Origin: an uncultured archaeon
GTDB lineage: Archaea; Asgardarchaeota; Thorarchaeia; Thorarchaeales; Thorarchaeaceae
Assembly (NCBI GenBank): GCA_964458565.1
Contig: CAYWJO010000008.1
Coordinates: forward strand, 37,995-101,994
Direction of reading: 5' to 3'
DNA: 64,000 bases
The notes below the pieces were generated by a model. The model had not been told where the DNA came from. It ran no database searches and saw nothing but the letters and a program-made list of their open reading frames with translations. The first letter of the stretch is position 1, and every line of letters begins with the position of its first letter. Below are positions 1-23,888 of the stretch, piece by piece. The translations under genes were made by a program, and so were the position numbers.

Positions 1-548
1 TCCAGAATTAGTGAAGTTGCAATTGTTGCTTGAATTGGTACGCCTTTGAATGATGATGCACATCCTACAAAGAAACCTATCTTAGATTCTTGATTCAATT
101 TATCCAACAACGCCTCCTCATCTGGATGCCAATAGGACCATCCTTCAACCCTATCCATCTGTGGTTGGCCATTGATATTGAAATCTTTCAACATGGTTTC
201 ACGAGTCATATTGAGTGCTTCTGGCCAAAGCCCTTTTTTGAGAAAATCAGCTCTAAGGCATTGATATACTTCCACAAAGGGGATGTCTACCTGACATATC
301 TCTTCACAGCCTCCACAGAGCGTACAACCGAAAATAGCATCTCTTAGTCCAATCAAACCCTCTGAAGGTCTAATTCTACCCTCCATCAAAGCTTTGGCAA
401 GAACCATCTTTCCCTTACCCGAATAACTGTCAAGTCGTTTCACTTTGTATGTAGGACAAGCACCATTACCAATCTGGCAGTAACTGCATTGTGCACATTG
501 GTATGGAGTCTGTTGCAGTCCGTGCTGTTCAAGTGTGGGGAATTTCAT
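1..548 (-). CDS. GlcF/HdrD-like (Fe-S)-binding CCG-domain protein, N-terminal part (runs off the window edge; absent from the ORF track)
   Basis: Manual translation from ATG at 548: MKFPTLEQHGLQQTPYQCAQCSYCQIGNGACP...CTLCGGCEEICQ...KIGFFVGC. Two 4Fe-4S motifs and the start of a CCG domain. Open to position 1 and colinear with the paralogs at 14389 and 18622. Confidence 0.9.
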   Translation of the reverse strand, partial: MKFPTLEQHGLQQTPYQCAQCSYCQIGNGACPTYKVKRLDSYSGKGKMVLAKALMEGRIRPSEGLIGLRDAIFGCTLCGGCEEICQVDIPFVEVYQCLRADFLKKGLWPEALNMTRETMLKDFNINGQPQMDRVEGWSYWHPDEEALLDKLNQESKIGFFVGCASSFKGVPIQATIATSLIL

Positions 549-726
549 CCTATATCGCTCCAAATGTAGTCAAGTGATAATCTTTCTGGCGGAAATCGGA
601 CACAAATACTTTTGGTCGTAGCAAGCTGCTGAGCGAAAATCAAATCAGTTCGCTAGCTTTTTATGTTGCCAGATTTCACAAGTGACTCACAAAGCAGCTC
701 CACATTGAGCTACGGAGAGCGTTCTC

Positions 727-2661
727 ATGGGCTTGAAAGTGAAGTACGTGGAACAACTAAAAGAAATATTTGAGGATCGTCTCATTACTGCAAAGCACGA
801 ACTTCTCCTCCAAGGGATTGACGTGGGCACACTTCCAAAACAGGTTGGATGGCTCATGAATCCAAATCCAGATGCTGTGGTACAACCGATATCCCCTGAG
901 GAAATTCAATCTCTATACAAGTTCGCCAATGAGACAAAGACCCCAATTGTACCTAGAGGGGCAGGGACATCAGGTTACGGGGGTGCGATTCCACGTAAAG
1001 GTGGAATAGTTGTTGATATTCGTCGAATGGACAAAATCCTTGAAATCGACAAAGAGAATATGACTGTAACAGTGGAGCCAGGAATCACTTGGTCTAATCT
1101 ACAGTTCGAACTAAGTCAACACGATCTTGATGTGCCATGTTATCCATCCTCCGGTCTCTCAGCAACAATCAGTGGATGGGTCGCTCAAGGTGGAGACGGT
1201 ATCGGGTCTCTTAAGTATGGAAAAGTCAATGATATAGTTGAAGAGTTGCAGGTCGTTCTTCCTGATGGTAGAATAGTCACAACGAAAGATAACGACCTCT
1301 TCTGTGACACCGAAGGAATTTTGGGAATCATCACAAAGATCACGCTTAAGATAAAACCACTCAGACCAATTCATCCTATTGTTGTCAGCTTTCCTGAGAA
1401 CTACCAACTAGTATTCGCTATTGAGCACATCTTAGAAGAAGGTCCATTACCCTACACAATGAAATTCAAGGAATCCAAATACATTGACTTGAAGAAGAGA
1501 GCTTGGGATAGCGATGAGCCCTTCCCATTCCCCGTACATCATGGTGTCTTGATGGTCGCCTATGAGGGTGATGATATAGAAGAAGGCTTTCGAGTTGTTG
1601 AAGCGGTCACAGAGAAATTTCAGGGGACCGTCTATGACCAGCATGTTGCTGACCATGAATGGGAAGAGAGATTCTACCCGATGAAGATAAAGAAACTTGG
1701 TCCTACCCTTGTTGTTGGCCAAGCATTTGCACCACTTGAAACTCTTGAGGCGCTCCTTGATGATTTCCATTGGGAACAAGCTTCAGCAGAAGCAGGTATG
1801 GATGGTTGGGTGACGACGAAAAATGGTGTGACCCTCATGGGTTATTTCCTTGAAGATGAACGTCGAAGATTATTCATGCTCTCCTGGTCTCAAAGCTTCC
1901 TCATCTGGAAGCTCGCGCAAAGGCATGGTGGTCACCCTCACAGCACAGGCATATGGTTTGCCAACTATGCACCGCAGTACTTTGGAAAACGGAGACTCGC
2001 TAGGATTCGTGCTGCGAAGACTGAACTTGACTCGAAGAACGTATCGAACCCTGGTAAGATATTCGCTTACTGGTTACCCTGGATGCTTCGAATTGGGAAG
2101 TATTTCATGTGGATTACTTTCGACATGATGCGAAATGGATTCGGTAGAAGCGCACCCCCCTATCTTCGATTGTTGCAGAATATGCCTCCAATCAAATGGA
2201 TTCTCCGATGGGGTAGGGCACACAGTCCTTGGCCGCTTCAGTATGGTCTAGGTTGTTGCATGGTAGAAGGTGCTGCCGCAGTTGCTTCAAGATGGGACTT
2301 CGAACGTTTCGGAATGCTACCACTCTTCGCACCAAGGCAGACCGATGTGTTATGGATTTCTGGATCCCTTACAAAGAAGATGGCAAAGCGTCTCAGAAGA
2401 ATCTATGAACAGATGCCTGAACCCAAGTTCGTTATTGCTTATGGCCAATGTGCTGCGAGTGGCGGCATGTTTTGGGATGGCTACAGTCTCATTTCACCAC
2501 CTGACTCAGTTGTACCTGTAGATGTTTACGTACCTGGATGTCCACCAAAACCATCCGATCTCATGCGAGCACACATTATTCTACAGAACAAGATTCGCGC
2601 TGGTACAACTCACTGGCAACAAAACTATGAGAATCAAGATGCTATGGGATTCTGGAAATAG
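727..2661 (+). CDS. Fusion of a FAD-binding oxidoreductase (GlcD/VAO fold) and a C-terminal complex I NuoB subunit
   Basis: N-terminal PRGAGTSGYGGAIP, VEPGI, ATISGWVA, TEGILGIIT and NPGKIF (ends ~2064). From ~2209: WGRAHSPWPLQYGLGCC...ERFG...PRQTD...YEQMPEPKFVIAYGQCAASGG...PVDVYVPGCPPKP, which is NuoB with the tandem CC. No stop between the two parts. Confidence 0.93.
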   Translation: MGLKVKYVEQLKEIFEDRLITAKHELLLQGIDVGTLPKQVGWLMNPNPDAVVQPISPEEIQSLYKFANETKTPIVPRGAGTSGYGGAIPRKGGIVVDIRRMDKILEIDKENMTVTVEPGITWSNLQFELSQHDLDVPCYPSSGLSATISGWVAQGGDGIGSLKYGKVNDIVEELQVVLPDGRIVTTKDNDLFCDTEGILGIITKITLKIKPLRPIHPIVVSFPENYQLVFAIEHILEEGPLPYTMKFKESKYIDLKKRAWDSDEPFPFPVHHGVLMVAYEGDDIEEGFRVVEAVTEKFQGTVYDQHVADHEWEERFYPMKIKKLGPTLVVGQAFAPLETLEALLDDFHWEQASAEAGMDGWVTTKNGVTLMGYFLEDERRRLFMLSWSQSFLIWKLAQRHGGHPHSTGIWFANYAPQYFGKRRLARIRAAKTELDSKNVSNPGKIFAYWLPWMLRIGKYFMWITFDMMRNGFGRSAPPYLRLLQNMPPIKWILRWGRAHSPWPLQYGLGCCMVEGAAAVASRWDFERFGMLPLFAPRQTDVLWISGSLTKKMAKRLRRIYEQMPEPKFVIAYGQCAASGGMFWDGYSLISPPDSVVPVDVYVPGCPPKPSDLMRAHIILQNKIRAGTTHWQQNYENQDAMGFWK

Positions 2662-2931: not shown

Positions 2932-4311
2932 ATGGTTCGATATACTGACAATCCAACAGTCAATAAGCGGCTGGTTGCAGGTTACTACCTGTTCCTCTGC
3001 TTAGTTGGGTTCACCATTCTTCTAGGACCAACTGGTTCCGGAATCCCAATCACTCTGGTTGGCGATGACGGAAGATACGAGCACCAGCTCGCGTATCCGG
3101 GAATGGGTACGGACTCAGCTTCCTGTGGCGCTACAGACTGTCATGATGACCAGTGGGACTACTGGAATCATACCAGCCACGCAAATGACCTGATGTTCAA
3201 TGGTACACATGTGTCACTTGGACATGGTTGGAGAGATCTTGCATCCTTCAACTCGTCATGTGCATGGTGTCATGCAACAGGCATAGACAATGAAACCTGG
3301 ACTGAAGTAGGTGTCGGTTGTCTTGCTTGTCATGATGGTACATCACCCTATCTATCATATGATGGTGAAGTATGTGGAGATTGCCACAATCCAGAACATC
3401 ACGAAACTGCAACCTCATATCCTGATTGGGAGGCATCAGTCCATGCTGATTCAATGACGGATCTAAGAACAAGTGATCATGCCAGTTCATCATGTATGCA
3501 CTGTCAGGCCACTGAATCTTTCATCCATCAACAGAATCCCGGAGACCTAGCTAGCTTTGTCAACACAACATTTGATGTTGATGGCGACTATACATCGATT
3601 TCTTGTCCAGCGTGTCACTCTGTACACTCAAACTGGTCAATGGTAGAAGGCAATGGTCTGCTTCGTGCAAACGATGCAACAGAGCTTTGTTCTCTCTGCC
3701 ATGTTGGAGATCATCACCCACAGTACCAAGTGTGGGAAGGTGGTCCTCACGATTTAGCAGGTGTTGAGTGTATTAGCTGTCATGGCTATCAGCTTATTTG
3801 GTCATCCCATGGTGGATGGACCCCAGTCACTAACCACACATTTGCTCTCAATGCGACAGCAGCTTGTGGTCAGGATGGCTGCCATGAAGGTGATAGAGCC
3901 GATTGGGCAATTACCATGATGGAAGCACGCGCTGACGCGTACACAGCTCTAACTGGAGAAATCGAAGACGAAGCTACAAGTTTAGCAGCTTTAGTCGATG
4001 CGTACAATGTAACCACTGGTGCCAACTACTCGCTTTCAGCTGATGTCTATGAAGCTATTGACGCAGCTGAACTGCAGGTTGACATCTACAATGCTGACAA
4101 ATCCATGGGCATGCATGATGGTGCTGAAACATTCACTACCCTCAATGCTGTCTTTGCTGATTTACTCAATGCAAAAGCCATGTTCTATAAGCTGTCATCG
4201 ACAGCAGCTCCTACTGGAGCATCTATGGACATGATTATTATCATTGGTGGTGCAGCAGGTGGTCTTGTACTTGGTTTGGTTCTAGGAGTATTGGTCGGAC
4301 GACGTAGATAA
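2932..4311 (+). CDS. Membrane-anchored multiheme cytochrome c (6 CxxCH, 2 Cx4CH, 1 CxxCQ)
   Basis: Motifs CGATDCH, CAWCH, CLACH, CGDCH, CMHCQ, CPACH, CSLCH, CISCH, CGQDGCH. N-terminal hydrophobic segment, helical C-terminal region with ADKSMGMHDG, then a TM helix and RRR. Confidence 0.92.
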   Translation: MVRYTDNPTVNKRLVAGYYLFLCLVGFTILLGPTGSGIPITLVGDDGRYEHQLAYPGMGTDSASCGATDCHDDQWDYWNHTSHANDLMFNGTHVSLGHGWRDLASFNSSCAWCHATGIDNETWTEVGVGCLACHDGTSPYLSYDGEVCGDCHNPEHHETATSYPDWEASVHADSMTDLRTSDHASSSCMHCQATESFIHQQNPGDLASFVNTTFDVDGDYTSISCPACHSVHSNWSMVEGNGLLRANDATELCSLCHVGDHHPQYQVWEGGPHDLAGVECISCHGYQLIWSSHGGWTPVTNHTFALNATAACGQDGCHEGDRADWAITMMEARADAYTALTGEIEDEATSLAALVDAYNVTTGANYSLSADVYEAIDAAELQVDIYNADKSMGMHDGAETFTTLNAVFADLLNAKAMFYKLSSTAAPTGASMDMIIIIGGAAGGLVLGLVLGVLVGRRR

Positions 4312-6668: not shown

Positions 6669-9098
6669 TTGGAGGTAAAAATTATGTTTGACTTCGGAAC
6701 AATATTCTTAGTGATTTCAGTGATACTGGCAATGATTGATGTATTCATCTTAGTCATTGGACCAAAAATACTGTCTGAGGAGGATTCAGATAGATACTCA
6801 TTCCTCTTCTCAGGAGGCGCATTTCTCGCTACTGTCGGTGCATTTCTCTTCATGGCTGTACTGATTTTCACGAATGATATCTCATACCAGTATGTGGTTC
6901 AGACAACAAAGAGTACAGCACCATTATTGCTGAAGCTATCTGCCCTTTGGGCTGGACAAGCTGGATCCCTACTCTTTTGGGCATTTCTAGCTTTTACACT
7001 CTACTTTGGGTTTAGGTACCTTATCCGCGGATATGAAGATGATATCATAGTATATCGTGCTTCTGCGATTATGGGAGTTTCCTCAATTCTGATTGTCATT
7101 AACGCTATCATCTCATCTCCATTCGCACCGTATCAGGGACCTGATATCTCAGATGGATATGGTCTCAACCCTCTCCTATCAACTATCTTGAATGTCATTC
7201 ATCCTCCGATTGTGTTTATTGCATACGCTCTTCTAATGGTGCCATTTGCCATTAAGCTCGCAGGTTTTACAGTAAGATCCGAAGAGCGACGGGATGAACC
7301 AATTCCAATCGTTGAGAGATATGCTTCATTCACAACTTCCTTTGCTTGGCTTATGCTTTCTTTAGGCATTGTCATTGGAGCCTACTGGGCATACAGCACA
7401 CTTGGTTGGGGTGGTTACTGGGGGTGGGACCCCGTCGAAACTTCGTCGTTGATTCCTTGGTTGCTCCTTACAGGCTTTTATCATGCAAAAGCGATTTTCA
7501 AGGATAATGATGTTCTTAGGGATTCTTTTCTTGTTTTCTCGTACATAACGGTATTATTCGCCACATGGGTCACTCGAAGTGGAGTTCTCACTTCAGTTCA
7601 TGGATTTACAATAACGGTTGTAAGCTGGACAATGTTTCTTACTCTGCTCGGGAATTTCATTTTCAGTATCTTACTTATTACACATGCAGGACTCAAAGAT
7701 ATGTCAGATGATGAGGAAGAGAGTGGGTGGCCAAGTATTTTCTCACTTCAAGATCTAAGGAAGTTTTCTATTTTCATTGCACTTATTGGTATACTTGTTG
7801 TCTCGTTTACTTCGTTTGCTGGAGTTGCTATGCCTGCTGCTATCAATATTGGTACTGCGATTTTCGATCCTACTAATCTAGAGAACAATATGGTTGGAAT
7901 AAACATAGAATTCTTCTGGTTGGGTTTCTATATTGCATCCTTCTTCCTCTTTGTTTCTGCATTCTATTGTATGAGGAATACTGCTATTTCAGCTCGAACA
8001 AAAAGTGTGATAGCACTAATTCTCATCGTTATTGGAGCAATTATCGGACTGTTCTCTTATGCTTATCCGGATTCATTACTCCCCACAAACTCGCTGATAG
8101 CAAACATGCTTGTTCCCCTAGCGATTGGAGCAATAGTCTATCTAGGGGTTACATTTGTCCGATATATGGCTGGTAGAGAATCAGGTGCATTTACAATGCG
8201 TCAAATGGGTAGACTAATGTTACATCTAGGTCTAGTGATGCTTCTACTTGGTGTATTCATGAGTTCGAATATTGAGTACCAATCCAGACAAGACTTCATA
8301 AGAAATATTCCGCAAGAGATTGCTCCGGGGCTAGAGTTACGAGTCAGTGGTATTCAACTGTCTGAAGATGGTTTGACGCTTTATGTTGCAATTCAATTAT
8401 TCCAGGATAACATGTCTATAGGAGTTGGTGTCGCATCACTCACGTTATTTCCTGGGTATGAAAACCCCGTTTCAAACGTGTATATACATTCAACAGCTGG
8501 ACAAGATATCTTCATTGCTATTGCAGCGTACTCTGGGTCCACAGGGAATATGGTAACACTTCAGACCAAGGTCCTTCCATTGATATCATTTGTATGGCTA
8601 GGTATCTTCTTCATGATTATGGCTATACTCCCATCTTTCGTCATGGAAGCATCCGGATTGTTCAAGGCAGTCAAGCGAAAACATGCACACCTTTATGGTG
8701 AGGAGGAAGAGGAGGCTATCGAGACAGATATGCTGCATCATCTGGAAATGCTACTGAAATCTGAGGTTCCTGCGGAATTAATCCGAAGTCTCAGCATGAC
8801 TCCACTATTACTCACACAAGGTAGGTACTCGGAAGCAGAGTTGGAGCTTAGAACAGTAACTGAACTCTATCCCGGTTATATGAGAGCTTGGTATCTCTTT
8901 GGTGCAGTATTAAATATCCAAAGGAAATATGCTGAGGCTGAAGCTGCATTCAGACGAACTGTGGAACTTGATTCCGAATTCGGTGAAGCATGGTACATAC
9001 TTGGCAATACCCTGAGAAATTTGGGTAAGGATGAAGATGCAGATGAGGCATTTCAACAAGCTAAGGTATTAGGATACAATCCTCGTTCCGAAGAGTGA
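6669..9098 (+). CDS. ccmF: Cytochrome c heme lyase CcmF with fused C-terminal TPR domain
   Basis: WAGQAGSLLFW, GLNPLL, HPP, WAYSTLGWGGYWGWDPVETSSLIPW (WWD domain), TRSGVLTSVHGF. About 3 TPRs at the C-terminus (AWYLFGAVL...AEAAFRRTVELD...AWYILGN). Confidence 0.92.
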   Translation: MEVKIMFDFGTIFLVISVILAMIDVFILVIGPKILSEEDSDRYSFLFSGGAFLATVGAFLFMAVLIFTNDISYQYVVQTTKSTAPLLLKLSALWAGQAGSLLFWAFLAFTLYFGFRYLIRGYEDDIIVYRASAIMGVSSILIVINAIISSPFAPYQGPDISDGYGLNPLLSTILNVIHPPIVFIAYALLMVPFAIKLAGFTVRSEERRDEPIPIVERYASFTTSFAWLMLSLGIVIGAYWAYSTLGWGGYWGWDPVETSSLIPWLLLTGFYHAKAIFKDNDVLRDSFLVFSYITVLFATWVTRSGVLTSVHGFTITVVSWTMFLTLLGNFIFSILLITHAGLKDMSDDEEESGWPSIFSLQDLRKFSIFIALIGILVVSFTSFAGVAMPAAINIGTAIFDPTNLENNMVGINIEFFWLGFYIASFFLFVSAFYCMRNTAISARTKSVIALILIVIGAIIGLFSYAYPDSLLPTNSLIANMLVPLAIGAIVYLGVTFVRYMAGRESGAFTMRQMGRLMLHLGLVMLLLGVFMSSNIEYQSRQDFIRNIPQEIAPGLELRVSGIQLSEDGLTLYVAIQLFQDNMSIGVGVASLTLFPGYENPVSNVYIHSTAGQDIFIAIAAYSGSTGNMVTLQTKVLPLISFVWLGIFFMIMAILPSFVMEASGLFKAVKRKHAHLYGEEEEEAIETDMLHHLEMLLKSEVPAELIRSLSMTPLLLTQGRYSEAELELRTVTELYPGYMRAWYLFGAVLNIQRKYAEAEAAFRRTVELDSEFGEAWYILGNTLRNLGKDEDADEAFQQAKVLGYNPRSEE

Positions 9099-9282
9099 TT
9101 TGCTAAGACAGAGCAACCATCACAGGTCATCTTGTTGGTTGCTTCTGCTAGTATTATTTACATGATGGAACTGATTCAAGATAAAAAGGATACAGAGTGT
9201 AAAGACCAACATCTTTATGGGTATGATTTAGTGGCAGAATGAACATTATTGCTGCCTGTGATAGCGCTCAAATTGAAATCAT

Positions 9283-9921: not shown

Positions 9922-9932
9922 GTTCCTGCTCT

Positions 9933-10307
9933 TCAAGTTTCATATTTACTTGGACACTGAACAAGCACTTGATTTGCTCTTATGGTACTTGGAGCTTGAT
10001 ATGTCCCAATAGCGACAATATCTTGATCATCTTGCATTGCCGGAACTTCCCCTGTAAGTATCACAAGAAGTGTATGATTAACTCCATAAATTGTGAATGT
10101 CGTATTTGATGTACTTGTGTCAAGTGAACCTGCCAGATACTTTCCTTTTATCTGAACAGAGTATCCGTCATATAGTTCGGGGTTTTCAACCACTCTGTCA
10201 ACACTGAGGTATGGATCTACAAAGGAGTTCAACATTACAACCGCTACAATTCCAATAGTTGCAATCAAGATGACTGAAACTGCAATTGCGGTGTGTTTCT
10301 TCTTCAA
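9933..10307 (-). CDS. ccmE: Heme chaperone CcmE, System I* CxxxY variant
   Basis: N-terminal TM, OB-fold-like body, C-terminal QCPSKYET; lies downstream of ccmABCD. Confidence 0.9.
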   Translation of the reverse strand: MKKKHTAIAVSVILIATIGIVAVVMLNSFVDPYLSVDRVVENPELYDGYSVQIKGKYLAGSLDTSTSNTTFTIYGVNHTLLVILTGEVPAMQDDQDIVAIGTYQAPSTIRANQVLVQCPSKYET

Positions 10308-10312
10308 TTATC

Positions 10313-10450: not shown

Positions 10451-10454
10451 TATA

Positions 10455-11123: not shown

Positions 11124-11189
11124 TTGAGATTCCTCTCGAATGGCTGTTCTGAAATCTTTCGGAATATGAAGGTTACGTTATAGTAAATT

Positions 11190-11900: not shown

Positions 11901-11910
11901 TTATTTCACC

Positions 11911-14389: not shown

Positions 14390-15573
14390 TACTCCAATCC
14401 TAATGCTTCGGTAACAATTTCTGAGAGATCTTTGAAGACAATCTCTGATTCCATACTTTCAAGACCATCGTTGAATGACATTGTGCAAGACGGGCATTCG
14501 CTTGCTAGGAATTCCGCCCCGGTCTTCTCTGCAGCTTTTAGTCGTCTTTGAGAGATTCTAATAGACATAAGCGGATTTGTACCTTTGAGTAGTCCGCCAC
14601 CACCACAGCAATCTGCTTTATTCCGATTGTGCTTCAACTCCTTCAATTCCAGTCCAGGAATTGCTTTGAGAACTTCACGAGCGGGATCGTAGATATTCTG
14701 ATGGCGACCCAGTTCACATGGGTCATGCCATGCCACCTTGTGATTATAGGGTTTCGTAAACTTGATTTTTCCTTCCTGTATCTTCTTCAAAATAAATTGT
14801 GAGAAACTAAGAAATTCGAATCCTTCAATTGCTGCGTGTCCTAGAAGATGTTCATATTCTTCGGAAAATGCTCGGTGACAACCTGGACAATTGAATACTA
14901 CTGTCTTTACTCCAAGTTTTCTTAGCTTTGAGAGATGGTGCTCTGCTGTTTCTCTTGCTTTTTCAAATTCACCCGCAACAAAGTACGGATTCCCACAGCA
15001 ATATTCTTCCTCTCCTAAAATTGTGAAGTCAAGTCCAAGATGGTTGAATATTTTGATTGTGTTTTCTCCCAGCTTTGCCAAAGTTCCCTTGAATGAGATA
15101 TTGCAACCAGCAAAATACGCTACTTCTGCTTCGACATCAATTCTGTCCTCAACAAGATCATCAATCATGTCAGTCCAGATAGTACGGTCAGATTGGTCAA
15201 GATCCATTATGTTGTGGCTATTCTCAATCGATTGGTCCAAGAATTTCACAGTCTCTGGCCATTCATCTAGATTACCTATTTCATTTCGAATAAGTTGCCA
15301 GAATCTCAGTAGGGGTATGTTTGTCTGACAAATATCTTGACATGCTCCACATAATGTACATTTGAAAATACGGTCTGCGAAATCAGCGGGAATTGGTTTT
15401 CCTTCCTTTATGAGGGATTTCAGTTGATATAACTTCCCTCGCGGTGATTGAGAGTCCCATAAAGTGTCTAAGTATGCTGGGCAGACAAAGGTGCAATATC
15501 CACATCTTGCACATACTGTGGGCTCGATGTCTAGGGTTTCCTTTTTCAGTGCTTCAAAGAGATCGTTTCCCAT
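14389..15573 (-). CDS. GlcF/HdrD-like Fe-S protein (2x4Fe-4S, 2 CCG domains)
   Basis: CARCGYCTFVCP, CTLCGACQDICQ, YCCG...CPGC, HDPCELGR, CCGGGG...CPSC. Confidence 0.92.
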   Translation of the reverse strand: MGNDLFEALKKETLDIEPTVCARCGYCTFVCPAYLDTLWDSQSPRGKLYQLKSLIKEGKPIPADFADRIFKCTLCGACQDICQTNIPLLRFWQLIRNEIGNLDEWPETVKFLDQSIENSHNIMDLDQSDRTIWTDMIDDLVEDRIDVEAEVAYFAGCNISFKGTLAKLGENTIKIFNHLGLDFTILGEEEYCCGNPYFVAGEFEKARETAEHHLSKLRKLGVKTVVFNCPGCHRAFSEEYEHLLGHAAIEGFEFLSFSQFILKKIQEGKIKFTKPYNHKVAWHDPCELGRHQNIYDPAREVLKAIPGLELKELKHNRNKADCCGGGGLLKGTNPLMSIRISQRRLKAAEKTGAEFLASECPSCTMSFNDGLESMESEIVFKDLSEIVTEALGLE

Positions 15574-15594: not shown

Positions 15595-16098
15595 TCATGG
15601 CCAAGGTAGACCTATCCAATGGAGTAATGGGTCCAGAATAGATTCTCCATAAACAGCAACACCACCCAAAGCTCCCAGGAAGACCATAAGCATCCCGCCG
15701 ATGATGGCTACAATGCCATAGGTTAAGAATGATACTCTGCCAACCCAGATACGGTCTCCGACTTTGGCACGTACGACTACAAGAAATATGTAAAGCTCTG
15801 TTGCGATGACTGACCAGAGAATCTTGAATCTCATAATTGGATCCGCAATAAGAATATCAACAGGCCAAGCTGGTTCCATAAATCCAGTTACCATTCCTGC
15901 AATTAGACCAATGAGTCCTATTATATTACCCCAGAAAATGAAGATGTCTAGCTCATGGAATATCTTTGCCATTCTTGTGCCGGGTGTTCGAATCGCTTCG
16001 CGGTACATCAATCGAAGCAACAAATTAATCATGACCACAACTGCAACTGCTGCAAGAATTCCTGTATGGAAGTGGACAAATGTTGGATGAATTGCCAT
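15595..16098 (-). CDS. DUF2231-like 4-TM membrane protein, possibly heme b-binding
   Basis: Start reassigned to MAIHPTFVHFHTG (HPxxVHF motif); four TM helices; GALGGVAVYG near the C-terminus. Confidence 0.65.
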   Translation of the reverse strand: MAIHPTFVHFHTGILAAVAVVVMINLLLRLMYREAIRTPGTRMAKIFHELDIFIFWGNIIGLIGLIAGMVTGFMEPAWPVDILIADPIMRFKILWSVIATELYIFLVVVRAKVGDRIWVGRVSFLTYGIVAIIGGMLMVFLGALGGVAVYGESILDPLLHWIGLPWP

Positions 16099-16100
16099 TA

Positions 16101-16694
16101 TTATGCCCTCCTGATGATATAGATTGCTAATATGATCATTATAATCCCAACAAGCGGTATCAGTATAAACATCATTGTGTACCAAATGCTGATGAGTTCA
16201 GCAGGATCAACTGGTTCAGTAGGTGTGAATCCAGTTGTTGCTCCTTCAACATCAACTTCGATATCAACACTATTCGCGTTTGGATATTCTCCACCGACCC
16301 AAATTCTAAGAGTATACTGTCCTCCTACTAAAGGTGTCACTTCTATTTCTACAGAAATTTCGCCTTCTGCAGAATTTGTGTCACCAGCACCATTGTCATG
16401 GACCACTTGTGTGGAATAATCAAACATATCGTTGTCAACAGTACTCCAAGATTTTTCTATACGCAAGAGAATGGCGCCTCCAGTGGCATCTATGGTTACT
16501 GTGAATGGTTCATCAACTGAAGCCGCCACAGTCCCTGTAACATCTGTGTTGATATTGATTGATGCAGCATTATCATGGCATCCTCCACACTCAGCTGTTT
16601 GGGTCAAAGTTGCTGAAACTATATTCGCTCCAGCGGTAACAATAAGAATTGTGCTTAGGAAACCAAAAATAAGAATCATATGGGTTCTCTTCAT
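16101..16694 (-). CDS. Membrane-anchored monoheme cytochrome c with Ig-like domain
   Basis: Signal peptide (start MKRTHM), CGGCH, beta-rich domain with DNGAGDTNSAEG, C-terminal TM and RRA. Confidence 0.75.
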   Translation of the reverse strand: MKRTHMILIFGFLSTILIVTAGANIVSATLTQTAECGGCHDNAASININTDVTGTVAASVDEPFTVTIDATGGAILLRIEKSWSTVDNDMFDYSTQVVHDNGAGDTNSAEGEISVEIEVTPLVGGQYTLRIWVGGEYPNANSVDIEVDVEGATTGFTPTEPVDPAELISIWYTMMFILIPLVGIIMIILAIYIIRRA

Positions 16695-16921
16695 TGTTTC
16701 ACCGTATCCGCATTTTCCATTCAAATTTTACAATTTGAATTTCGATTTGAAACCAAATGAATGATATATGAGCATATCGGAATATTCCTTATTCTCTCAC
16801 ACTGTATAAACAGTTACACTTGGAAGCCAATTAACGTATAAATGGTTTCGAGATATAATTAGCTGATGGAATTAGCTATCCTCTTCTATATATTTTGAAT
16901 AAGAATTTAATCAAATGATTA

Positions 16922-18646
16922 CTATTTGTTCCAAATTCGACCCATTAGACGTAAAAATGGTAGAGCTAATGAAAAAGCCAAATTCAGTGTCATTAAGTGA
17001 GCCATAATGTAACCCAAGATACCTCCCCCGATACTGCCAAGAATAAAAACTGGTATTGGAAAATTTGGTAATATAGGATTCATTAAGAATTCAGTAAGCC
17101 AACTCAATCCTAGTAAAGGTGGACCAAATAGAGCTGCAATCAAAAATACGATTGCTCCTGCGATAAATCCAGCTGCTTGTGTCTTCCTACCTGGAATAAC
17201 TCTTCCACCAAAGACTTTCATTGGATTCATTAGATTATTGGGATCTACTTTCTGTTTCAAACTTCGGAGTGCATAGTATAGATCTTTGCCAAAGAAATCT
17301 TCTGAATATTTGGCATTCCACAATCCTATTGCATATGGCTTACCGCCATAGCGTACAGCTCTGGATGTAATCTCGAAAGGTCGATACCATCCAGCTAGGT
17401 ATGAATACTTGTTTCGCTCATCATCAAGGACCCATGCAAGAAAACCAGTGAAACCATCTTTGCTAATGGTACCTTCCACTGCGAATTTTTCCCACTCGAT
17501 TGAACTTGATATTTCCATATAGAACTCATTTAGATTCTCAAGTGGAATCAGTACTTCAGATGGTACAATGCTGGGACCATATCTCTTTATTCGAAGTGGA
17601 AAAAGCCTTTCTCTCCAATAATAGCTAGCCCGTTCTTCACTTAATATGATTCCTCCTGTTTCTTTCAGAATTATATCAATGAATTCTAAGCTATCATCAT
17701 TTTCGTAAATCGTATTCATCAAAGCTCCAGTCAGAATAAACTCGTTCATTTCAGAATCGTACCCAATGAGTGCTTTGAGTTTTGATGTATAATTATCAGC
17801 AAGAAAGCGAAGATTGAATGGTTTTGCTTTTTCTAGAATCAATATTGCTGCTTTCATCAGAGTCTCCATGTCATGGAATGCACAAGCAAAGGGTCTCAGC
17901 TGCAGCATGGGTACTATCTTGAGAGTAGCTTTTGTGATAAAACCAATCGTTCCATATGTTGCTACTACTGCTTCGAGGAGGTTATCATGTGGAAAATTTT
18001 CTTCTAACCAACTACATTCATTCTCATCTAACGGATCGTTTTCTAACACCAATTTTCCTATTCGAACTATTTTGCCATTGGCTAGCACGACCTCGAGACC
18101 AAGAATCTGATCTGCAATTTCACCAAACATAGCAGAGCCAATTCCAATACCTCCACTAGCTATGAATCCTCCAACAGTTGCAGCAGTTGCACTTGATGGA
18201 TAAACAGGAAGTGTTGATCCCAGCTTTTCTAAAAACATCAATAGTTCTCTGTATATTATACCTCCCTCTACTGTCACAGTAAGTCCAAAATTATCAAGGT
18301 GTAATATCGTTGACATTCGATTGAAATTCACGCATATTCCAGCCTTAGCAGGAATTGCACCTCCCCATCCCGAAGTCCCGCTGCCTCTTGGTACTAAGGG
18401 CATCTTTTTTTCATTCGCGTACAACACAAGCCTCCGAAGAGATTCCACCGTTCTTGGCTGAGCGATTAGATCAAATTTTTTTCTAATTATCTGCTCGGTC
18501 AGACTTGGTAAACTAGCTACATCGTTTTCGTATGCAACGCAAGACTCTCTAATGGTTGAAACTCCATCAGCTCCAACAATGTCTTCTATATGTTGGATCT
18601 CCGTGCTATCTAAATTGACCACTACTCCTTTTCCTCCTTGAGACAC
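16922..18646 (-). CDS. FAD-binding oxidoreductase (GlcD fold) with C-terminal transmembrane hairpin
   Basis: PRGSGTSGWGGAIP, ATVGGFIA, TYGTIGFIT, WRERLFPLRIKRYGPS, MNP; C-terminal TM helices. Confidence 0.9.
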   Translation of the reverse strand: MSQGGKGVVVNLDSTEIQHIEDIVGADGVSTIRESCVAYENDVASLPSLTEQIIRKKFDLIAQPRTVESLRRLVLYANEKKMPLVPRGSGTSGWGGAIPAKAGICVNFNRMSTILHLDNFGLTVTVEGGIIYRELLMFLEKLGSTLPVYPSSATAATVGGFIASGGIGIGSAMFGEIADQILGLEVVLANGKIVRIGKLVLENDPLDENECSWLEENFPHDNLLEAVVATYGTIGFITKATLKIVPMLQLRPFACAFHDMETLMKAAILILEKAKPFNLRFLADNYTSKLKALIGYDSEMNEFILTGALMNTIYENDDSLEFIDIILKETGGIILSEERASYYWRERLFPLRIKRYGPSIVPSEVLIPLENLNEFYMEISSSIEWEKFAVEGTISKDGFTGFLAWVLDDERNKYSYLAGWYRPFEITSRAVRYGGKPYAIGLWNAKYSEDFFGKDLYYALRSLKQKVDPNNLMNPMKVFGGRVIPGRKTQAAGFIAGAIVFLIAALFGPPLLGLSWLTEFLMNPILPNFPIPVFILGSIGGGILGYIMAHLMTLNLAFSLALPFLRLMGRIWNK

Positions 18647-19842
18647 TTAGCAACAAGCTCAGCTAAATCCAACCTGTCTATTGAATAATTGATTGAATTG
18701 AATGCGATATCGAATGCAATCTTGCATCTTGGACACTCAGTCACAAGGAGTGTAGCAGGAGTTACAGATACCTCTCTACATCTTCTCTCTGCAATTCTTG
18801 AAGCCATTAGTGGGTCTACGCTACTCAAGAGGGCATGGTTTCCACAGCACTTTGTTTCCTTCTCTGAAGCCAACATTTCAACATTGTATACTCCCGGGAT
18901 TCTTTCGATAACATCTCTTGGTTCTCGCGTAATCCCTAGTCTTCTGGCGGAAACACAAGGATCATGAAATGTTGCTGTAATCATTGGCTGTTCTTCATAT
19001 TCAAGTCTGCCCTCTGCATTCAACCTGTGTATGAATTGTGAAGTAGTTAAAAGTTCAAATTCCTTAGCAATCGATACTCCAAGAAATTCTCTATAAACGG
19101 TCCGCCAGGTATTGATACAAGAAGGACAACTAAACACAATGGTGTTAACACCCAAATCTCTCATTAAGTCAGTATTCTTATTTGCTAATTCAGGAGCACT
19201 TTCGTAGTCTCCTGTCCATAATAAAGGAGCTCCACAGCAAACTTCCTGCTCTCCTAAAAGAGTAAAGTCAACATCAGCGTGCTGCATGATTTTTACCATT
19301 GATCGCGGTATTCCTTGCACCTGTGCCTTCATAGTAGCGTTGCATCCTGCAAAATATGCAACACTCGCATTTCTCCTGATATGGGGATTCACCATGTCTT
19401 CAATACCTTCTGCCCATATCATACGATTACCTGGTCCCATCCAAAACGGGTCTCCGTATTTCAACATGGAGTCCCGAATTGCCTGAATTGGTGCTGGTAA
19501 GAGTCCTGCTTTAGCCGCTTCAGCTCTGGTGAGTTCCCAGAATCGATCTAATTGTATAGACGTTGTACAAACTGATGAGCAATGTTCACAAAGACTGCAA
19601 AGGAAAATCTTTCTTGCAAATTCTTCATCAAAGTCTGCTTTACCTTCGAAAATTGATTTCATTACGGAAAGCTTACCTCGAGGACCGTATTGCTCCCATT
19701 CCATTTCATTGAACACTGGACAAACCATTGTGCAATTTCCGCATGAAGCACATACATAGGGTTCTGCCTTCTGTCCCTTCATTCGAAGTGCTTCAAAGTC
19801 AGTCATGGAATAGTCCTCGGAGTCATTTGCTACTTTTTTCAC
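18622..19842 (-). CDS. GlcF/HdrD-like Fe-S protein (2x4Fe-4S, 2 CCG domains)
   Basis: CASCGNCTMVCP, CSLCEHCSSVC, VCCG...CPSC, HDPC, KCCG...CPRC; the start may be ATG 19806. Confidence 0.92.
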   Translation of the reverse strand: MKKVANDSEDYSMTDFEALRMKGQKAEPYVCASCGNCTMVCPVFNEMEWEQYGPRGKLSVMKSIFEGKADFDEEFARKIFLCSLCEHCSSVCTTSIQLDRFWELTRAEAAKAGLLPAPIQAIRDSMLKYGDPFWMGPGNRMIWAEGIEDMVNPHIRRNASVAYFAGCNATMKAQVQGIPRSMVKIMQHADVDFTLLGEQEVCCGAPLLWTGDYESAPELANKNTDLMRDLGVNTIVFSCPSCINTWRTVYREFLGVSIAKEFELLTTSQFIHRLNAEGRLEYEEQPMITATFHDPCVSARRLGITREPRDVIERIPGVYNVEMLASEKETKCCGNHALLSSVDPLMASRIAERRCREVSVTPATLLVTECPRCKIAFDIAFNSINYSIDRLDLAELVAKCLKEEKE

Positions 19843-21232: not shown

Positions 21233-22357
21233 TTATTCCTCCACTACAGATGACCTTGCTAGGTCTAGAATCAATTCATCCAACTGAATAACTTCAATAT
21301 CGAAATCTCGTGCGTTATAACTCAAATTCTTGAAACAAGATATACAGGTTGTAATGAGACCATCCGCACCAGTATCAACAGCTTCTTGGACACGCTTCTT
21401 ACCAACTGCCTCAGCGAGATCGGGATCTAGAACTGCGAGAAAACCTCCACAACAATTGGAATTCTCATGATTTCCAGCCATTTCTCTTAATTCAATACCT
21501 GGAATTCCACGAATAATCTCTCGGGGTGCTTCATAGATACCAAGAGCACGACCAAGATGACAACTATCATGAAATGTATACACTCCCTCCAAGCTCTTGA
21601 ACGTTAGAACACCATTCCGAACCATATCTGCTATGTACTCAACGGTATGATGTACTTCAATATCGAACTCAGGGATAAGACGTTTGTAATGCTCTGCAAG
21701 TGTTCCGAAACATCCACCACAACCTGTGACAATGTGGTCCACTCCTGCTTTTTTGAAGGCATCATAATTCTTTTGGGCAATCTCCTTGAATCCTTTATCA
21801 TCACCAGCCCAATAATTCATTAGCCCACAGCAGACTTCACTTGGTATATATCCTGCATTTATCTTCAATTTCTCCATCAGGTCTACAACCATCTCAGATT
21901 GATCTGGGAAATAATATGAACCCATACACCCACTGAAGATCGCAGTGTTGGATTCAGGTGGCAGTTCTAAGTCCTCGGCCCAGACATCTCGGTCTTCGCC
22001 CTCGAATCCAATAAAAGGCGTTCCCTCTTGCTTTACCCAGGCCAATACTTGGATGAGCGAGTCTGACATCTTACCACCACTATTGAGTAGTGATGCTTTT
22101 GCGTCATGCCAAATGTCAGTGACAGGCACATTTGCAGGACAGACTGCCTCACACATTCGACAATCTGCACAGTATAGTCGATTCAGTAGTTCTTGTGGTG
22201 GATTCCACATCTTCTCTCGATAAGCTCTAAGAGCTCGTATTTTTCCTCCTGGACTGTCTAATTCCGAACCAAGTTGTTGATACATGGGACAGAAGTCTCG
22301 ACAGTAATTGCAAGAGCCACAATGTCGTAGTAGTTTATCATCTATGTCAATCTTCAC
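21233..22357 (-). CDS. GlcF/HdrD-like Fe-S protein (2x4Fe-4S, 2 CCG domains)
   Basis: CGSCNYCRDFCP, CADCRMCEAVCP, VCCG...CGGC, HDSCHLGR, CCGG...CISC. Confidence 0.92.
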   Translation of the reverse strand: MKIDIDDKLLRHCGSCNYCRDFCPMYQQLGSELDSPGGKIRALRAYREKMWNPPQELLNRLYCADCRMCEAVCPANVPVTDIWHDAKASLLNSGGKMSDSLIQVLAWVKQEGTPFIGFEGEDRDVWAEDLELPPESNTAIFSGCMGSYYFPDQSEMVVDLMEKLKINAGYIPSEVCCGLMNYWAGDDKGFKEIAQKNYDAFKKAGVDHIVTGCGGCFGTLAEHYKRLIPEFDIEVHHTVEYIADMVRNGVLTFKSLEGVYTFHDSCHLGRALGIYEAPREIIRGIPGIELREMAGNHENSNCCGGFLAVLDPDLAEAVGKKRVQEAVDTGADGLITTCISCFKNLSYNARDFDIEVIQLDELILDLARSSVVEE

Positions 22358-22364
22358 TTCTGAA

Positions 22365-23888
22365 TCACGCTCCTATGAACTTCGAGAGCCATCTAAACTT
22401 AGTGGCAAGTTGGAAAAGGATATCGATTCGACCATATGATGTCAAACATGATGTAATCCTATCAGGATTCATGATGTTAAGAGGATCCCATTCCTCTTTC
22501 GCCCTCTTGATTTCTTCGTATTTTATCGGATATGCTCTCTTCATATAGATGCTATTTTGTAAACCAATGGTATATGGTGCTCCACCATGACTAATGGACT
22601 TCTTCACCATTTTGTGAAGAACTCCCTTACTGGCGATAAATTTCAGATAATGATCTGGATTTATCATAGCAAACAATTCAATACGCATGAACTCTTGCGT
22701 TCCCAACATACCGTACCAGAGGGCAGGTACTTTGTGTGAAACTCTGTAGTCTTCGTATTTCTTTAATAAATCGTATACAGATTCTAGCGGAACCCAGAGT
22801 TCTTGAAACATGAGTGTTTCGCAGTGTTCCTTTGGATTAAATTCTGAATCATGTCTTAGTTCCCACTCTTTATCTGAAAACTCTTCACCTAAGAATTCTC
22901 CTCCATGACCCGTAGTTGCTGCTTCAAGTTCAAATTTACTAGTGGGATCGAAATTTTGCAGTATAGCATCTGAAGAATAGGTTACAGTCAGGACAAAGTT
23001 TCCTTTCTCCAAAGGATTGCTATACTTCTGCAGTTCCTTGTCTGCAATCTTCAAGAAGATTGGTTTGTATGCCATTTTGGTAATTTCTCGCACAGCAAGG
23101 CAGAGATGCTCTAATCTTTTGAATCCGTACGAGTAGGTTTCGTAATTCTCAGGTTGCTTGTGTACCTTAAGAGTGACCTCTGTAATAACACCAAGTATTC
23201 CATAAGACCCGCAAATAATTCCAGCTTCTTCTCCTGTAAGTGTCATCATTTCACCATCAGGTTTGACAACTTTGAGTTCAAGAATGTGGTCCTCGAGTAT
23301 GCCATAGAATGGAGTACCAATCCCCGCACGTCCACCACACCCAATCCAACCGCCAATGACTGCAGATTTAGCGCTGGTTGGATAGATGCCAAAGGTTAAT
23401 CCCTTTTTTACAAGTTGTTTTTCAAGAGCATCGAAAGTGACGCCTGGTTCAACTGTTACATATTCTTGGTCTTCGTTTATTTCCAGAATATGATTCATGA
23501 GTTTTATATCCAATGAGATACCACCTCGTGTTGGACTTGATGAGCCCAAACAACTCGAAGCGCCGCCTCTTGGAATCACTGGCACCTTAGATGCATTGGC
23601 AATCCTCAATACGCTCTGTACTTCTTCAACTGAAGTAACTCGAACAACATAATCCACAAGGCTTTTTCTCTTCCATCGATAATGGAACTGTGGTAGTGAC
23701 GCCGGATCACCACTATACACGATTCTCTCAAGTTCCATATCTGAAGCACGACTTTCCCCCACAACAGCTATAAGCTGATTTAGTATTGGGTCAACATCTT
23801 GTCCTTCTTCAGGAATAGGCTCCATCTTTTTTCCAGTTTCTTCATCAGCAGGAGATACCTCAGTTTCTACTTTGTCTTCGCTTCCCAT
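22365..23888 (-). CDS. FAD-binding oxidoreductase (GlcD fold)
   Basis: Start reassigned to MGSEDKVE; PRGGASSCLG, VEPGV, AVIGGWIG, GSYGILGVIT, MNP; short amphipathic tail. Confidence 0.88.
   Translation of the reverse strand: MGSEDKVETEVSPADEETGKKMEPIPEEGQDVDPILNQLIAVVGESRASDMELERIVYSGDPASLPQFHYRWKRKSLVDYVVRVTSVEEVQSVLRIANASKVPVIPRGGASSCLGSSSPTRGGISLDIKLMNHILEINEDQEYVTVEPGVTFDALEKQLVKKGLTFGIYPTSAKSAVIGGWIGCGGRAGIGTPFYGILEDHILELKVVKPDGEMMTLTGEEAGIICGSYGILGVITEVTLKVHKQPENYETYSYGFKRLEHLCLAVREITKMAYKPIFLKIADKELQKYSNPLEKGNFVLTVTYSSDAILQNFDPTSKFELEAATTGHGGEFLGEEFSDKEWELRHDSEFNPKEHCETLMFQELWVPLESVYDLLKKYEDYRVSHKVPALWYGMLGTQEFMRIELFAMINPDHYLKFIASKGVLHKMVKKSISHGGAPYTIGLQNSIYMKRAYPIKYEEIKRAKEEWDPLNIMNPDRITSCLTSYGRIDILFQLATKFRWLSKFIGA

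Follow-up and report, generated by a model that had tools for sequence, protein, structure and literature searches.

Flavoprotein and HdrD-like Fe-S protein pairs of a Thorarchaeaceae genome as putative membrane-docked electron-transfer modules of two separate systems

Domain architecture of the four pairs

Within 24 kb of a Thorarchaeaceae genome, four GlcD-fold flavoproteins are encoded next to four Fe-S proteins, which raises the question of whether these pairs are membrane-docked redox modules, and whether they work together or apart. The window is the whole stretch of 64,000 nucleotides that was analyzed, and coordinates refer to it unless stated otherwise. The first-pass annotation had described four flavoprotein/CCG pairs, with starts at 548 and 23888 for the two outermost genes, and C-termini of three kinds, a NuoB fusion in one flavoprotein, a transmembrane (TM) hairpin in two and an amphipathic tail in one; Pfam domains and Kyte-Doolittle hydrophobicity (19-residue window) confirmed this description. 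FAD_binding_4 with FAD-oxidase_C was found at 727-2661 (plus strand) and at 12659-14389, 16922-18646 and 22365-23936 (all minus, the last frame with its ATG at 23888), and Fer4_8 with two CCG domains at 14389-15573, 18622-19842 and 21233-22357 (all minus). The frame at 3-563 (minus, ATG at 548) runs past the window edge and has only its Fer4_8 part in the window; the complete gene (G000:C8:37319-38557) encodes a CCG protein of 412 residues.

1..548, minus strand: CCG1, N-terminal part of the HdrD/GlcF-like partner of pair 1 (Fer4_8; continues left to G000:C8:37319, CCG domains outside the window)
727..2661, plus strand: flavoprotein 1 fused to NuoB (Pfam, NCBIfam NuoB cut-offs, AF2)
12659..14389, minus strand: flavoprotein 2, C-terminal TM hairpin at about nt 12722-12928, then PF(L/M)RLxRKIF (Pfam, hydrophobicity)
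14389..15573, minus strand: CCG2, HdrD-like Fe-S protein, stop overlapping the flavoprotein 2 start (Pfam, cysteine motifs)
16922..18646, minus strand: flavoprotein 3, C-terminal TM hairpin at about nt 16952-17185, closing motif as in flavoprotein 2 (Pfam, hydrophobicity)
18622..19842, minus strand: CCG3, HdrD-like Fe-S protein (Pfam, cysteine motifs, NCBIfam)
21233..22357, minus strand: CCG4, HdrD-like Fe-S protein (Pfam, cysteine motifs)
22365..23888, minus strand: flavoprotein 4, short amphipathic C-terminal helix without TM span (Pfam, hydrophobicity)

Each flavoprotein adjoins one HdrD/GlcF-like protein composed of a dicluster ferredoxin domain and two CCG domains, and two CxxCxxCxxxC motifs and two complete CCG motifs are present in each of the four partners. 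The genes of pair 1 are transcribed divergently and those of pairs 2-4 in one direction, with the CCG gene first in pairs 2 and 3 and the flavoprotein gene first in pair 4. Four of the nine FAD_binding_4 loci of the genome lie in this island.

Past residue 488, flavoproteins 2 and 3 both contain a pair of hydrophobic spans (up to 2.3), and flavoprotein 4 ends in an amphipathic helix. The hairpin of flavoprotein 2 is kept in all 108 full-length clusters at 90% identity, and the conserved PF(L/M)RLxRKIF motif behind it, with which flavoprotein 3 also closes, could be a protein-docking element rather than a membrane helix. Relatives from other lineages have an NrfD-type anchor fusion or N-terminal TM hairpins. 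TM prediction and cluster conservation both bear out the earlier suggestion of membrane tethers, the tails being conserved and either hydrophobic or amphipathic. We read the four flavoproteins as putative membrane-docked electron-transfer modules. Our literature search found no paper describing the NuoB fusion or the tethers.

Paralogy and loss of catalytic residues

The paralogues of the four pairs share 25-36% identity, and orthologues in other genera 46-76%. Each pair forms its own orthologous group and clade with 100% SH-aLRT (a branch-support test) in both the flavoprotein and the CCG tree, in agreement with the first-pass view of the pairs as true paralogues. The deep nodes are weak in both trees, and pair 4 groups with an extra pair 5, seen in G002 and G007, in the flavoprotein tree only. 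The four pairs are old paralogues from an uncharacterised branch of GlcD-fold flavoproteins, whose signature is GGxPYxxG in place of GEHGxG together with a basic amphipathic C-terminal helix.

The original label "GlcD-type" did not hold. None of the four flavoproteins reached the GlcD equivalog cut-off (134-148 versus 567.9 bits), and other residues stand in place of the His/His/Glu metal site and the catalytic His in all four and throughout the GGxPY branch, as the alignment of flavoprotein 3 with LctD and LDHD also demonstrated. The GlcDEF glycolate oxidase, Dld-II and YdiJ-type dehydrogenases have the same two-protein (or fused) architecture, and among the 150 closest representatives at 50% identity, about 30 fuse the flavoprotein to the CCG protein in one chain of 850-1070 residues, with both domains complete. 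In contrast to those dehydrogenases, the proteins studied here miss the equivalog cut-offs, have GGxPY instead of the catalytic His/Glu motifs, and carry the additional amphipathic helix or TM hairpin. The metal and catalytic residues of lactate/glycolate dehydrogenases are thus absent from all four flavoproteins, and the cytoplasmic substrate of flavoprotein 1/CCG1 is most likely not a canonical 2-hydroxyacid.

Two separate systems

The pairs belong to two separate systems, A (pair 1) and B (pairs 2-4). In this genome the four pairs fit into 24 kb, and in G002 into a single stretch of 29 kb, which would suit the initial idea of one heteromeric assembly. However, at least seven genera have pair 1 but lack pairs 2-4, the two sets lie on different contigs in G011 and G005, and each cassette has its own membrane partner gene, making one assembly of all four pairs highly improbable.

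System A: a flavoprotein-NuoB fusion

Flavoprotein 1 contains an Oxidored_q6 domain (residues 511-615, 5e-25, Pfam) and exceeds the NuoB subfamily cut-offs TIGR01957 (177.9 versus 142.7 bits) and NF005012 (187.4 versus 116). The 644-residue protein comprises the flavoprotein (approximately residues 1-447), a helical amphipathic linker (449-484, nt 2071-2178) and the NuoB domain (489-628, nt 2191-2610); in the AF2 model, the flavoprotein part has a pLDDT of about 90 and the linker is a single long helix. Like NuoB, Nqo6, PSST and NdhK, the fused domain has the tandem-Cys N2 ligands, and its best solved relatives are NdhK and Nqo6 (1e-43). The four N2 cysteines (GCC..GxC..GCPP) are kept in all 45 full-length fusion clusters. 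Unlike the free subunits, the fused domain forms the C-terminal part of a flavoprotein, and its coding region lies outside the NuoK-NuoC slot. The genome has three Oxidored_q6 matches, two of them [NiFe]-hydrogenase small subunits, so that the only complex I-type NuoB is the one on flavoprotein 1. The pump genes lie downstream of it.

25325..26261: small membrane proteins p181 (25325-25870, plus strand) and p120 (25899-26261, minus strand), always between the fusion and NuoA in relatives
26549..38135, plus strand: complex I-like operon NuoA-J-K-C-D-H-I with four antiporter-like subunits, without NuoB and NuoEFG

The NuoD and NuoH of this operon are the only ones in the genome. Nine related genera share the order CCG1, flavoprotein-NuoB, p181, p120 and NuoAJKCDHI-MLMN, with CCG1 divergent from the fusion gene, the nuo genes within about 0.4-6 kb downstream and a separate NuoB never present. 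In the sister family (G016), the order is NuoJ-K-NuoB-C-D, where a free NuoB of 152 residues, 51% identical to the fused domain, occupies the slot between NuoK and NuoC. NuoD lacks the quinone-binding Tyr; its best solved relative is the sulfane-sulfur reductase MBS, whose RICVPE aligns with RLCMPE. Since the N-terminus of NuoB is close to the membrane in complex I enzymes of known structure, the FAD and the CCG1 clusters may or may not be near enough to N2 or NuoI for electron transfer.

On the other side of pair 1, genes for a MenA-like prenyltransferase, a polyprenyl synthase and a GGR-family reductase adjoin CCG1. The same trio lies beside CCG1 in G004, G008, G011, G013 and G001, the last without the fusion and without such a nuo operon, and a MenA-like gene is also beside CCG1 in G007 and G010. 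Every family genome with pair 1 has a MenA-like gene. A quinone-like carrier is unproven, because the MenA-like gene scores below every NCBIfam cut-off, MqnA is absent from the 26 genomes examined and MqnC from this genome.

System B: cytochromes and Ccm genes

In a fixed gene block, pairs 2-4 are accompanied by 4-TM proteins and monohaem cytochromes c. The list gives these partner genes together with other genes of the island.

2932..4311, plus strand: NrfA/c552-like multihaem cytochrome c (Pfam)
6669..12600: cytochrome c maturation genes, CcmF-TPR (6669-9098, plus strand) and CcmE, C, B, A (9933-12600, minus strand)
9283..9921, plus strand: FMN reductase
15595..16185, minus strand: 4-TM membrane protein of the pair 2 cassette, four hydrophobic spans, start probably near 16101
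16101..16724, minus strand: exported monohaem cytochrome c (CGGCH), containing a beta-rich domain and anchored by a C-terminal TM segment
19900..21228, minus strand: amine-oxidase-fold flavoprotein, HpnE/phytoene-desaturase-like
23893..25101, minus strand: fusion protein joining an exported monohaem cytochrome c (CASCH) to beta-rich domains and a His-rich 4-TM domain

The block was found only in five of the 26 genomes, those that also have CcmE, and CcmE co-occurs exactly with flavoproteins 2 and 3. Its gene order is the same in G002 and G011, so that pairs 2-4 are not scattered or unrelated in close relatives. The 4-TM protein at 15595..16185 has orthologues in both (43-60% identity), few conserved histidines and no Pfam match; an assignment to DUF2231 in a protein atlas, made there with high confidence, is a lead only. 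The fusion at 23893..25101 heads the pair 4 cassette and has conserved histidines inside its TM helices. The amine-oxidase-fold protein is among the best conserved genes of the block, with 74% identity to its counterparts in G002 and G011. The first-pass proposal that the pairs feed the pump and the cytochromes survived in part: the NuoB fusion and synteny link pair 1 to the pump, and pairs 2-4 are tied to cytochromes, but a connection of all four to the pump did not stand.

The closest solved chain to CCG2 is EtfD (9ojn_A, 9.5e-30). Mycobacterial EtfD (PDB 9OJN) acts as a wire from a flavoprotein through Fe-S clusters and haem b to menaquinone, and likewise links a cytoplasmic flavoprotein to the membrane through two [4Fe-4S] sites and two CCG clusters (PMC13083937). 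It has its own 5-TM haem b domain and receives electrons from ETF (PMC13083937), whereas the CCG proteins of the window lack TM spans and the membrane parts are separate 4-TM proteins or the flavoprotein hairpin.

Alternative explanations and known systems

The pairs might be 2-hydroxyacid (lactate/glycolate) dehydrogenases feeding the quinone pool and cytochromes, with pair 1 delivering electrons directly into N2 as a new complex I input head. The fold and the best solved relatives (LctD, LDHD, glycolate oxidase) favor this, as does the precedent of GlcDEF and Dld-II, known flavoprotein plus CCG quinone reductases, and the NuoB fusion and its synteny with the nuo operon suit an input head. 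Yet the metal-site and catalytic residues are replaced throughout the GGxPY branch and GlcD equivalog scores are a quarter of the cut-off; moreover, NuoI, the usual ferredoxin entry point, is kept, so the pump already has an input, and the flavoprotein is attached to NuoB at a point remote from where electrons usually enter complex I. We therefore consider this explanation unlikely, even though the multi-copy "Dld + HdrD" pairs of Sifarchaeia and Jordarchaeia have been interpreted in this way, as D-lactate dehydrogenases (Sun et al. 2021, PMC9723677). Those Asgard genomes also have many paralogous pairs beside a headless complex I, and the passages on the pairs make no mention of TM hairpins, a NuoB fusion or cytochrome c partners (PMC9723677); the proteins described here differ in having lost the lactate dehydrogenase catalytic residues.

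A direct ferredoxin:disulfide (or other soluble acceptor) oxidoreductase, with electrons passing from NuoI through N2 to CCG1/flavoprotein without a lipid carrier, has its model in the Fpo-like/HdrD(/GlcD) complex proposed for Methanomassiliicoccales and Methanomethylicia (PMC10667645; 10.1101/2022.08.18.504445). Complete HdrB/HdrD-type CCG motifs, the MBS-like NuoD without the quinone Tyr, the missing Mqn genes (MqnA in 26 genomes, MqnC in this one) and seven genera with system A but without cytochrome c maturation all agree with it. However, it has no known disulfide substrate, leaves the family-wide amphipathic tail unexplained, and does not fit the lipid gene trio kept beside pair 1 even without the nuo operon, and we regard it as rather improbable. 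The same neighbours, together with the desaturase-like amine oxidase, the lost 2-hydroxyacid residues, the membrane tethers and alkyl-DHAP synthase among the solved relatives, could indicate that the pairs make or modify carrier or membrane lipids in the manner of alkyl-DHAP synthase and are not respiratory modules. Such a role is very unlikely in view of the NuoB fusion with intact N2 ligands, the strict association of flavoproteins 2 and 3 with CcmE, the cytochrome c genes adjoining pairs 2 and 4, and the four-cluster HdrD-like partners typical of electron transfer (PMC13083937).

The closest known systems also include an Fpo-like complex that has been proposed to contain HdrD and GlcD (Methanomassiliicoccales, Methanomethylicia, Bathyarchaeia, Korarchaeia), grouped here with the Fpo, methanophenazine, HdrDE chain of Methanosarcina. 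This complex is a published parallel that likewise combines a pump lacking NuoEFG/FpoF, an HdrD-like CCG protein and a GlcD-fold flavoprotein (PMC10667645; 10.1101/2022.08.18.504445). The association there was proposed from gene content, whereas in the present genome a covalent flavoprotein-NuoB fusion takes the place of the free subunit.

Proposed roles of systems A and B

In the reading that we prefer and hold to be fairly probable, old paralogous flavoprotein/HdrD-like modules, docked to the membrane and transferring electrons, would serve two separate systems, each flavoprotein pairing with its own HdrD-like Fe-S protein. In system A, the flavoprotein would have taken over the NuoB gene from a headless complex I-like pump with four antiporter-like subunits, and this takeover would build flavoprotein and CCG1 into the pump one-to-one. 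We infer that ferredoxin electrons most likely enter at NuoI, and that the pump would exchange electrons with the flavoprotein/CCG1 module via a prenylated lipid carrier, presumably the product of the adjacent MenA-like, polyprenyl synthase and GGR genes. System A would then amount to a compact version of the Fpo, methanophenazine, HdrDE chain. In system B, each pair would act together with its neighbouring 4-TM protein, exported monohaem cytochrome c or both to form an EtfD/HdrDE-like wire between a cytoplasmic flavin reaction, the membrane and cell-surface cytochromes. For Thorarchaeota, an Asgard group usually read as fermenters, the fusion to the only complex I-like pump and the exported cytochromes point to membrane respiration.

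Gene organization of the region

The region encodes four GlcD-fold flavoproteins (1-4), each with an HdrD/GlcF-like iron-sulfur partner (CCG1-CCG4), a cytochrome c maturation (ccm) block and a complex I-like (nuo) operon.

Main features (window coordinates unless a contig or locus is named)
L004:15871-19323 (G000:C8:33870-37319 in the genome of the window), just left of the window and adjoining CCG1: GGR-family reductase, polyprenyl synthase and MenA-like UbiA prenyltransferase
1-548, minus strand, running on left of the window: CCG1
727-2661, plus strand: flavoprotein 1-NuoB fusion
2932-4311: NrfA-like multihaem cytochrome c
After the NrfA-like cytochrome c: surface protein of 722 aa
After the surface protein: CcmF-TPR, then FMN reductase
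25101 down to 9933, minus strand: single gene run of 15 kb
26549-38135: NuoA-J-K-C-D-H-I and four antiporter-like subunits

The minus-strand run begins with a cytochrome c/Ig/4-TM protein, flavoprotein 4, CCG4, an amine-oxidase-fold protein, CCG3 and flavoprotein 3, and continues with a cytochrome c/Ig protein, a 4-TM protein, CCG2, flavoprotein 2 and CcmA, B, C and E. Judging from the coordinates, the gaps between these genes are mostly 1-60 nt or overlaps. NuoB and NuoEFG are absent from the nuo operon, which is directly followed by an ORF of 2107 aa (38940-45263). Judging by the names given to close homologues, the organism belongs to Thorarchaeota.

NuoB is fused to flavoprotein 1

NuoB is normally a free-standing protein of about 150-250 aa, whereas here it forms residues 489-628 of a 644-aa fusion. 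The domain scores above the curated cut-offs of TIGR01957 (177.9 vs 142.7 bits) and NF005012 (187.4 vs 116 bits), as well as that of Pfam PF01058 (88.1 vs 27). It is nearest to NdhK, Nqo6 and PSST (1e-43 to 1e-39); the small subunits of MBS, MBH and FHL rank below these. The window protein has the N2 ligands, including the tandem Cys-Cys, as GCC, GQC and GCPP, and all 45 full-length clusters keep these ligands. All these clusters carry the fusion and come from many assemblies, and a frameshift or misassembly origin was therefore rejected.

The genome of the window (G000, 93% complete) contains one NuoD, one NuoH and a single nuo operon. The fused NuoB is its sole complex I-type copy and is needed to complete the operon's set. 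Two other Oxidored_q6 genes were considered as the missing NuoB and rejected, as both adjoin [NiFe]-hydrogenase large subunits.

An intact fusion is present in 11 of the 16 family genomes sampled, one per genus. Nine genera (G002, G004, G005, G007, G008, G009, G010, G011 and G013) share the arrangement CCG1 (divergent), fusion, p181, p120 and NuoAJKCDHI-MLMN with the fusion about 0.4-6 kb upstream of the nuo genes, and no separate NuoB was found in any of them. The same operon in the sister-family genome G016 includes a separate NuoB of 152 aa between NuoK and NuoC, which shares 51% identity with the fused domain; NuoB has thus left this slot and joined the flavoprotein in Thorarchaeaceae. In G000, the fusion is split from p181 and the nuo operon by a block of about 22.6 kb containing cytochromes, ccm genes and pairs 2-4. 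G001 encodes an unfused orthologue (499 aa, 55% identity) together with CCG1, and a nuo operon of this kind is absent there. The fusion gene of G005 is internally deleted (L019:10225-11628 on contig C29), with its 467 aa matching residues 1-379 and 624-644 only, so that the NuoB part is gone; the whole of this 93%-complete genome gave zero matches to PF01058, hydrogenase small subunits included.

The small membrane proteins p181 (181 aa, with an acidic tail) and p120 (120 aa), encoded at 25325-26261, are in relatives always located between the fusion and NuoA. They may be extra pump subunits; neither has a family match, and Pfam searches with E values of up to 5 produced no usable hit. NuoD (28533-29672) is most similar to MbsL of MBS, a sulfane-sulfur reductase (6u8y_L, 3.4e-59), and reads RLCMPE at the position of the quinone-binding RLDY (Tyr) of complex I, suggesting that the acceptor site of the pump may not be a standard quinone site.

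The flavoproteins form a branch without the lactate dehydrogenase active site

All four flavoproteins contain FAD_binding_4 and FAD-oxidase_C, the fold of GlcD, D-lactate and D-2-hydroxyglutarate dehydrogenases, and each partner has Fer4_8 and two CCG domains, in agreement with the four flavoprotein/Fe-S pairs of the first-pass annotation. Two CxxCxxCxxxC motifs and two complete five-Cys CCG motifs are present in each of CCG1-4 (alignment; Pfam CCG matched twice). None of the flavoproteins reaches the 567.9-bit cut-off of the GlcD equivalog TIGR00387 (134-148 bits), and a pattern search found neither the metal-binding HxGDGNxH nor the catalytic EHGxG motif in any of them. In an alignment with LctD and mouse LDHD, EHG gives way to PY and a gap of three residues, and both His of HxGDGNxH are missing; the two canonical motifs are found in a paralogue on contig C1 of the same genome. 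Dozens of 50%-identity representatives share the GGxPYxxG motif, and [G/S/A]EHGxG is absent from all of them. Naming such flavoproteins "D-lactate dehydrogenases" is thus a habit to be avoided, and metabolic maps that count lactate oxidation from this label are probably wrong.

Flavoprotein-CCG fusions with both domains complete make up about 30 of the 150 closest representatives, which supports a physical heterodimer. The CCG proteins reached no cut-off of the named CCG equivalogs (GlcF, GlpC, TfrB, TmcB, LdhH, DsrK), the best matches being LdhH and TfrB with 141-160 bits against cut-offs of 385-800. The nearest solved relative of CCG2 is EtfD, and the CCG proteins show clear sequence similarity to it (9ojn_A). 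EtfD connects a cytoplasmic flavoprotein with menaquinone through its CCG and [4Fe-4S] clusters and a haem b (PMC13083937). Its CCG module is fused to a transmembrane (TM) haem b domain, whereas the present CCG proteins have no TM span and the membrane parts are separate genes.

Further flavoprotein/CCG pairs of G000 are located on contigs C56, C3 and C36. Another GlcD-fold paralogue of this genome (474 aa) lies between two CCG proteins (G000:C4:43730-46926) and has the loop SHQHGVG, the same as in alkyl-DHAP synthase.

Membrane tethers

The C-terminal tails are those described from the sequence at first pass (hairpins, an amphipathic tail and NuoB), with small corrections only. Hydropathy analysis placed two TM-length spans past residue 488 in flavoproteins 2 and 3; flavoproteins 1 and 4 and the CCG proteins showed no such span. 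The C-terminus of flavoprotein 4 is an amphipathic helix. Flavoprotein 1 has an aromatic, amphipathic linker, for which the AF2 model of the fusion predicts one long helix (residues 449-484); in this model the flavoprotein domain is confident (pLDDT about 90) and the NuoB domain, with a thin alignment, poor (pLDDT 40-80). The hairpin is conserved throughout the 108 full-length clusters built for flavoprotein 2 at 90% identity.

A basic amphipathic motif, PF(L/M)R(L/I)Gx(K/R)IF, is located at the C-terminus of flavoproteins 2 and 3 and within the flavoprotein 1 linker. It also closes many relatives of other taxa that lack a fusion; the soluble paralogues in G000 terminate directly after NPGK. 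This placement makes the hairpin of flavoproteins 2 and 3 an insertion between the NP motif and the helix, with both its ends on the cytoplasmic side. Among members of the branch from other lineages (proteins P0196 and P0213), one of 867 aa carries a fused NrfD/PsrC-type membrane anchor, and Hodarchaeum forms have an N-terminal TM hairpin and a C-terminal TM span. Evidently, membrane tethering arose several times within this flavoprotein branch.

Descent of the pairs and the cytochrome c island

The flavoproteins of G000 are about 25-36% identical to each other and the CCG proteins 25-36.5%; with orthologues in other genera they share 46-76% identity. In quick IQ-TREE trees of 49 rows, each pair forms its own clade for both subunits (100% SH-aLRT), and both trees place pair 2 as sister to pair 3 (99% and 82% SH-aLRT). 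A fifth pair joins pair 4 in the flavoprotein tree only and the deeper nodes are weak in both trees. This co-phylogeny, the check suggested at first pass, thus shows joint duplication only for pairs 2 and 3. The suggestion that all four pairs are subunits of one heteromeric assembly is ruled out by the occurrence of pair 1 without the island (the cytochrome c/ccm block with pairs 2-4) in at least seven genera.

The block running from the cytochrome c/4-TM protein past flavoprotein 2 to CcmA has the same order in G002 and G011. In the G011 orthologue of the cytochrome c/4-TM fusion (L014:3286-4509), CxxxxCH stands against CASCH of the window protein. Flavoproteins 2 and 3 were found only in G000, G002, G005, G007 and G011, and CcmE in exactly these five of 26 genomes, which, the genomes being kin, is a pattern and not a statistic. 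The 4-TM protein of the pair 2 cassette had no usable Pfam match, even with E values of up to 5, and no NCBIfam match; a protein atlas match to DUF2231 (0.85-0.86) is a lead only. A fifth cassette in G002 and G007 (L007:1690-4956, L010:3848-6935) encodes a small His-rich 4-TM protein, a flavoprotein sister to flavoprotein 4 in the flavoprotein tree, and a CCG protein; no orthologue was seen among the G000 paralogues.

Candidate carrier genes next to pair 1

The best NCBIfam matches of the UbiA-family prenyltransferase are all MenA-type 1,4-dihydroxy-2-naphthoate (DHNA) polyprenyltransferases, at 133 bits and below the cut-offs. The trio of GGR, polyprenyl synthase and MenA-like genes also adjoins CCG1 in G001, G004, G008, G011 and G013, and the MenA-like gene alone in G007 and, at a contig end, in G010; in G002 it is located inside the pair 2-4 block. 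All family genomes having pair 1 contain the MenA-like gene. MqnA was not found in 26 genomes, nor MqnC in G000. The trio may make a prenylated redox carrier. In two relatives the MenA-like gene has one in-frame TGA (G007:C62:30588-31634, G024:C276:4475-5392), which may reflect a sequencing error, loss of function as a pseudogene, or recoding; selenoproteins are known in Asgard archaea.

Discussion

We read all pairs as membrane-docked electron-transfer modules. A headless complex I-like operon with adjacent HdrD-like and GlcD-like genes resembles the proposed Fpo-HdrD-GlcD complex (PMC10667645; 10.1101/2022.08.18.504445), and the NuoB fusion argues for a physical association of the same kind. 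The joining of HdrD/GlcD-like modules to headless pumps has so far been proposed from gene lists only, and a flavoenzyme permanently fused to NuoB provides gene-fusion evidence for it. Multi-copy "Dld + HdrD" pairs have been published for Sifarchaeia and Jordarchaeia (PMC9723677). Searches of the openly accessible literature returned no account of the NuoB fusion, of the hairpins or of the cytochrome cassettes.

The domains, the tethers, the fusion, the synteny and the phyletic patterns are observations; how these parts assemble, whether they use a carrier and in which direction electrons flow we infer. The genomic context best fits pair 1 as a carrier-coupled two-site enzyme, with ferredoxin reacting at NuoI and another substrate at the flavoprotein/CCG1 module. 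Direct wiring, in which pair 1 would dispense with carrier coupling, and a reading of the pair as an input dehydrogenase fit this context less well. We propose that pairs 2-4 act as EtfD/HdrDE-like wires to haem proteins.

It is possible, if rather doubtful as a whole, that Thorarchaeaceae run a previously unrecognised three-part membrane electron-transport chain. Its first part would be a complex I relative that the fusion of NuoB to a new flavoenzyme/HdrD-like module turned into a two-site ferredoxin:X (or XH2:ferredoxin) energy converter, and its second a prenylated carrier not yet described. Some genera would add, as a third part, a new family of flavoprotein, Fe-S and haem cassettes that hand electrons from the cytoplasm to cytochromes at the cell surface. 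The usual picture of Thorarchaeota is one of fermenters or acetogens; the cytochrome-linked cassettes and MenA-like carrier genes suggest that membrane or cell-surface respiration is possible in some genera. If true, the three-part chain would imply that Asgard archaea regarded as fermenters are capable of anaerobic or extracellular respiration. No known group is more closely related to eukaryotes than Asgard archaea, and how these gain energy matters for models of eukaryote origin.
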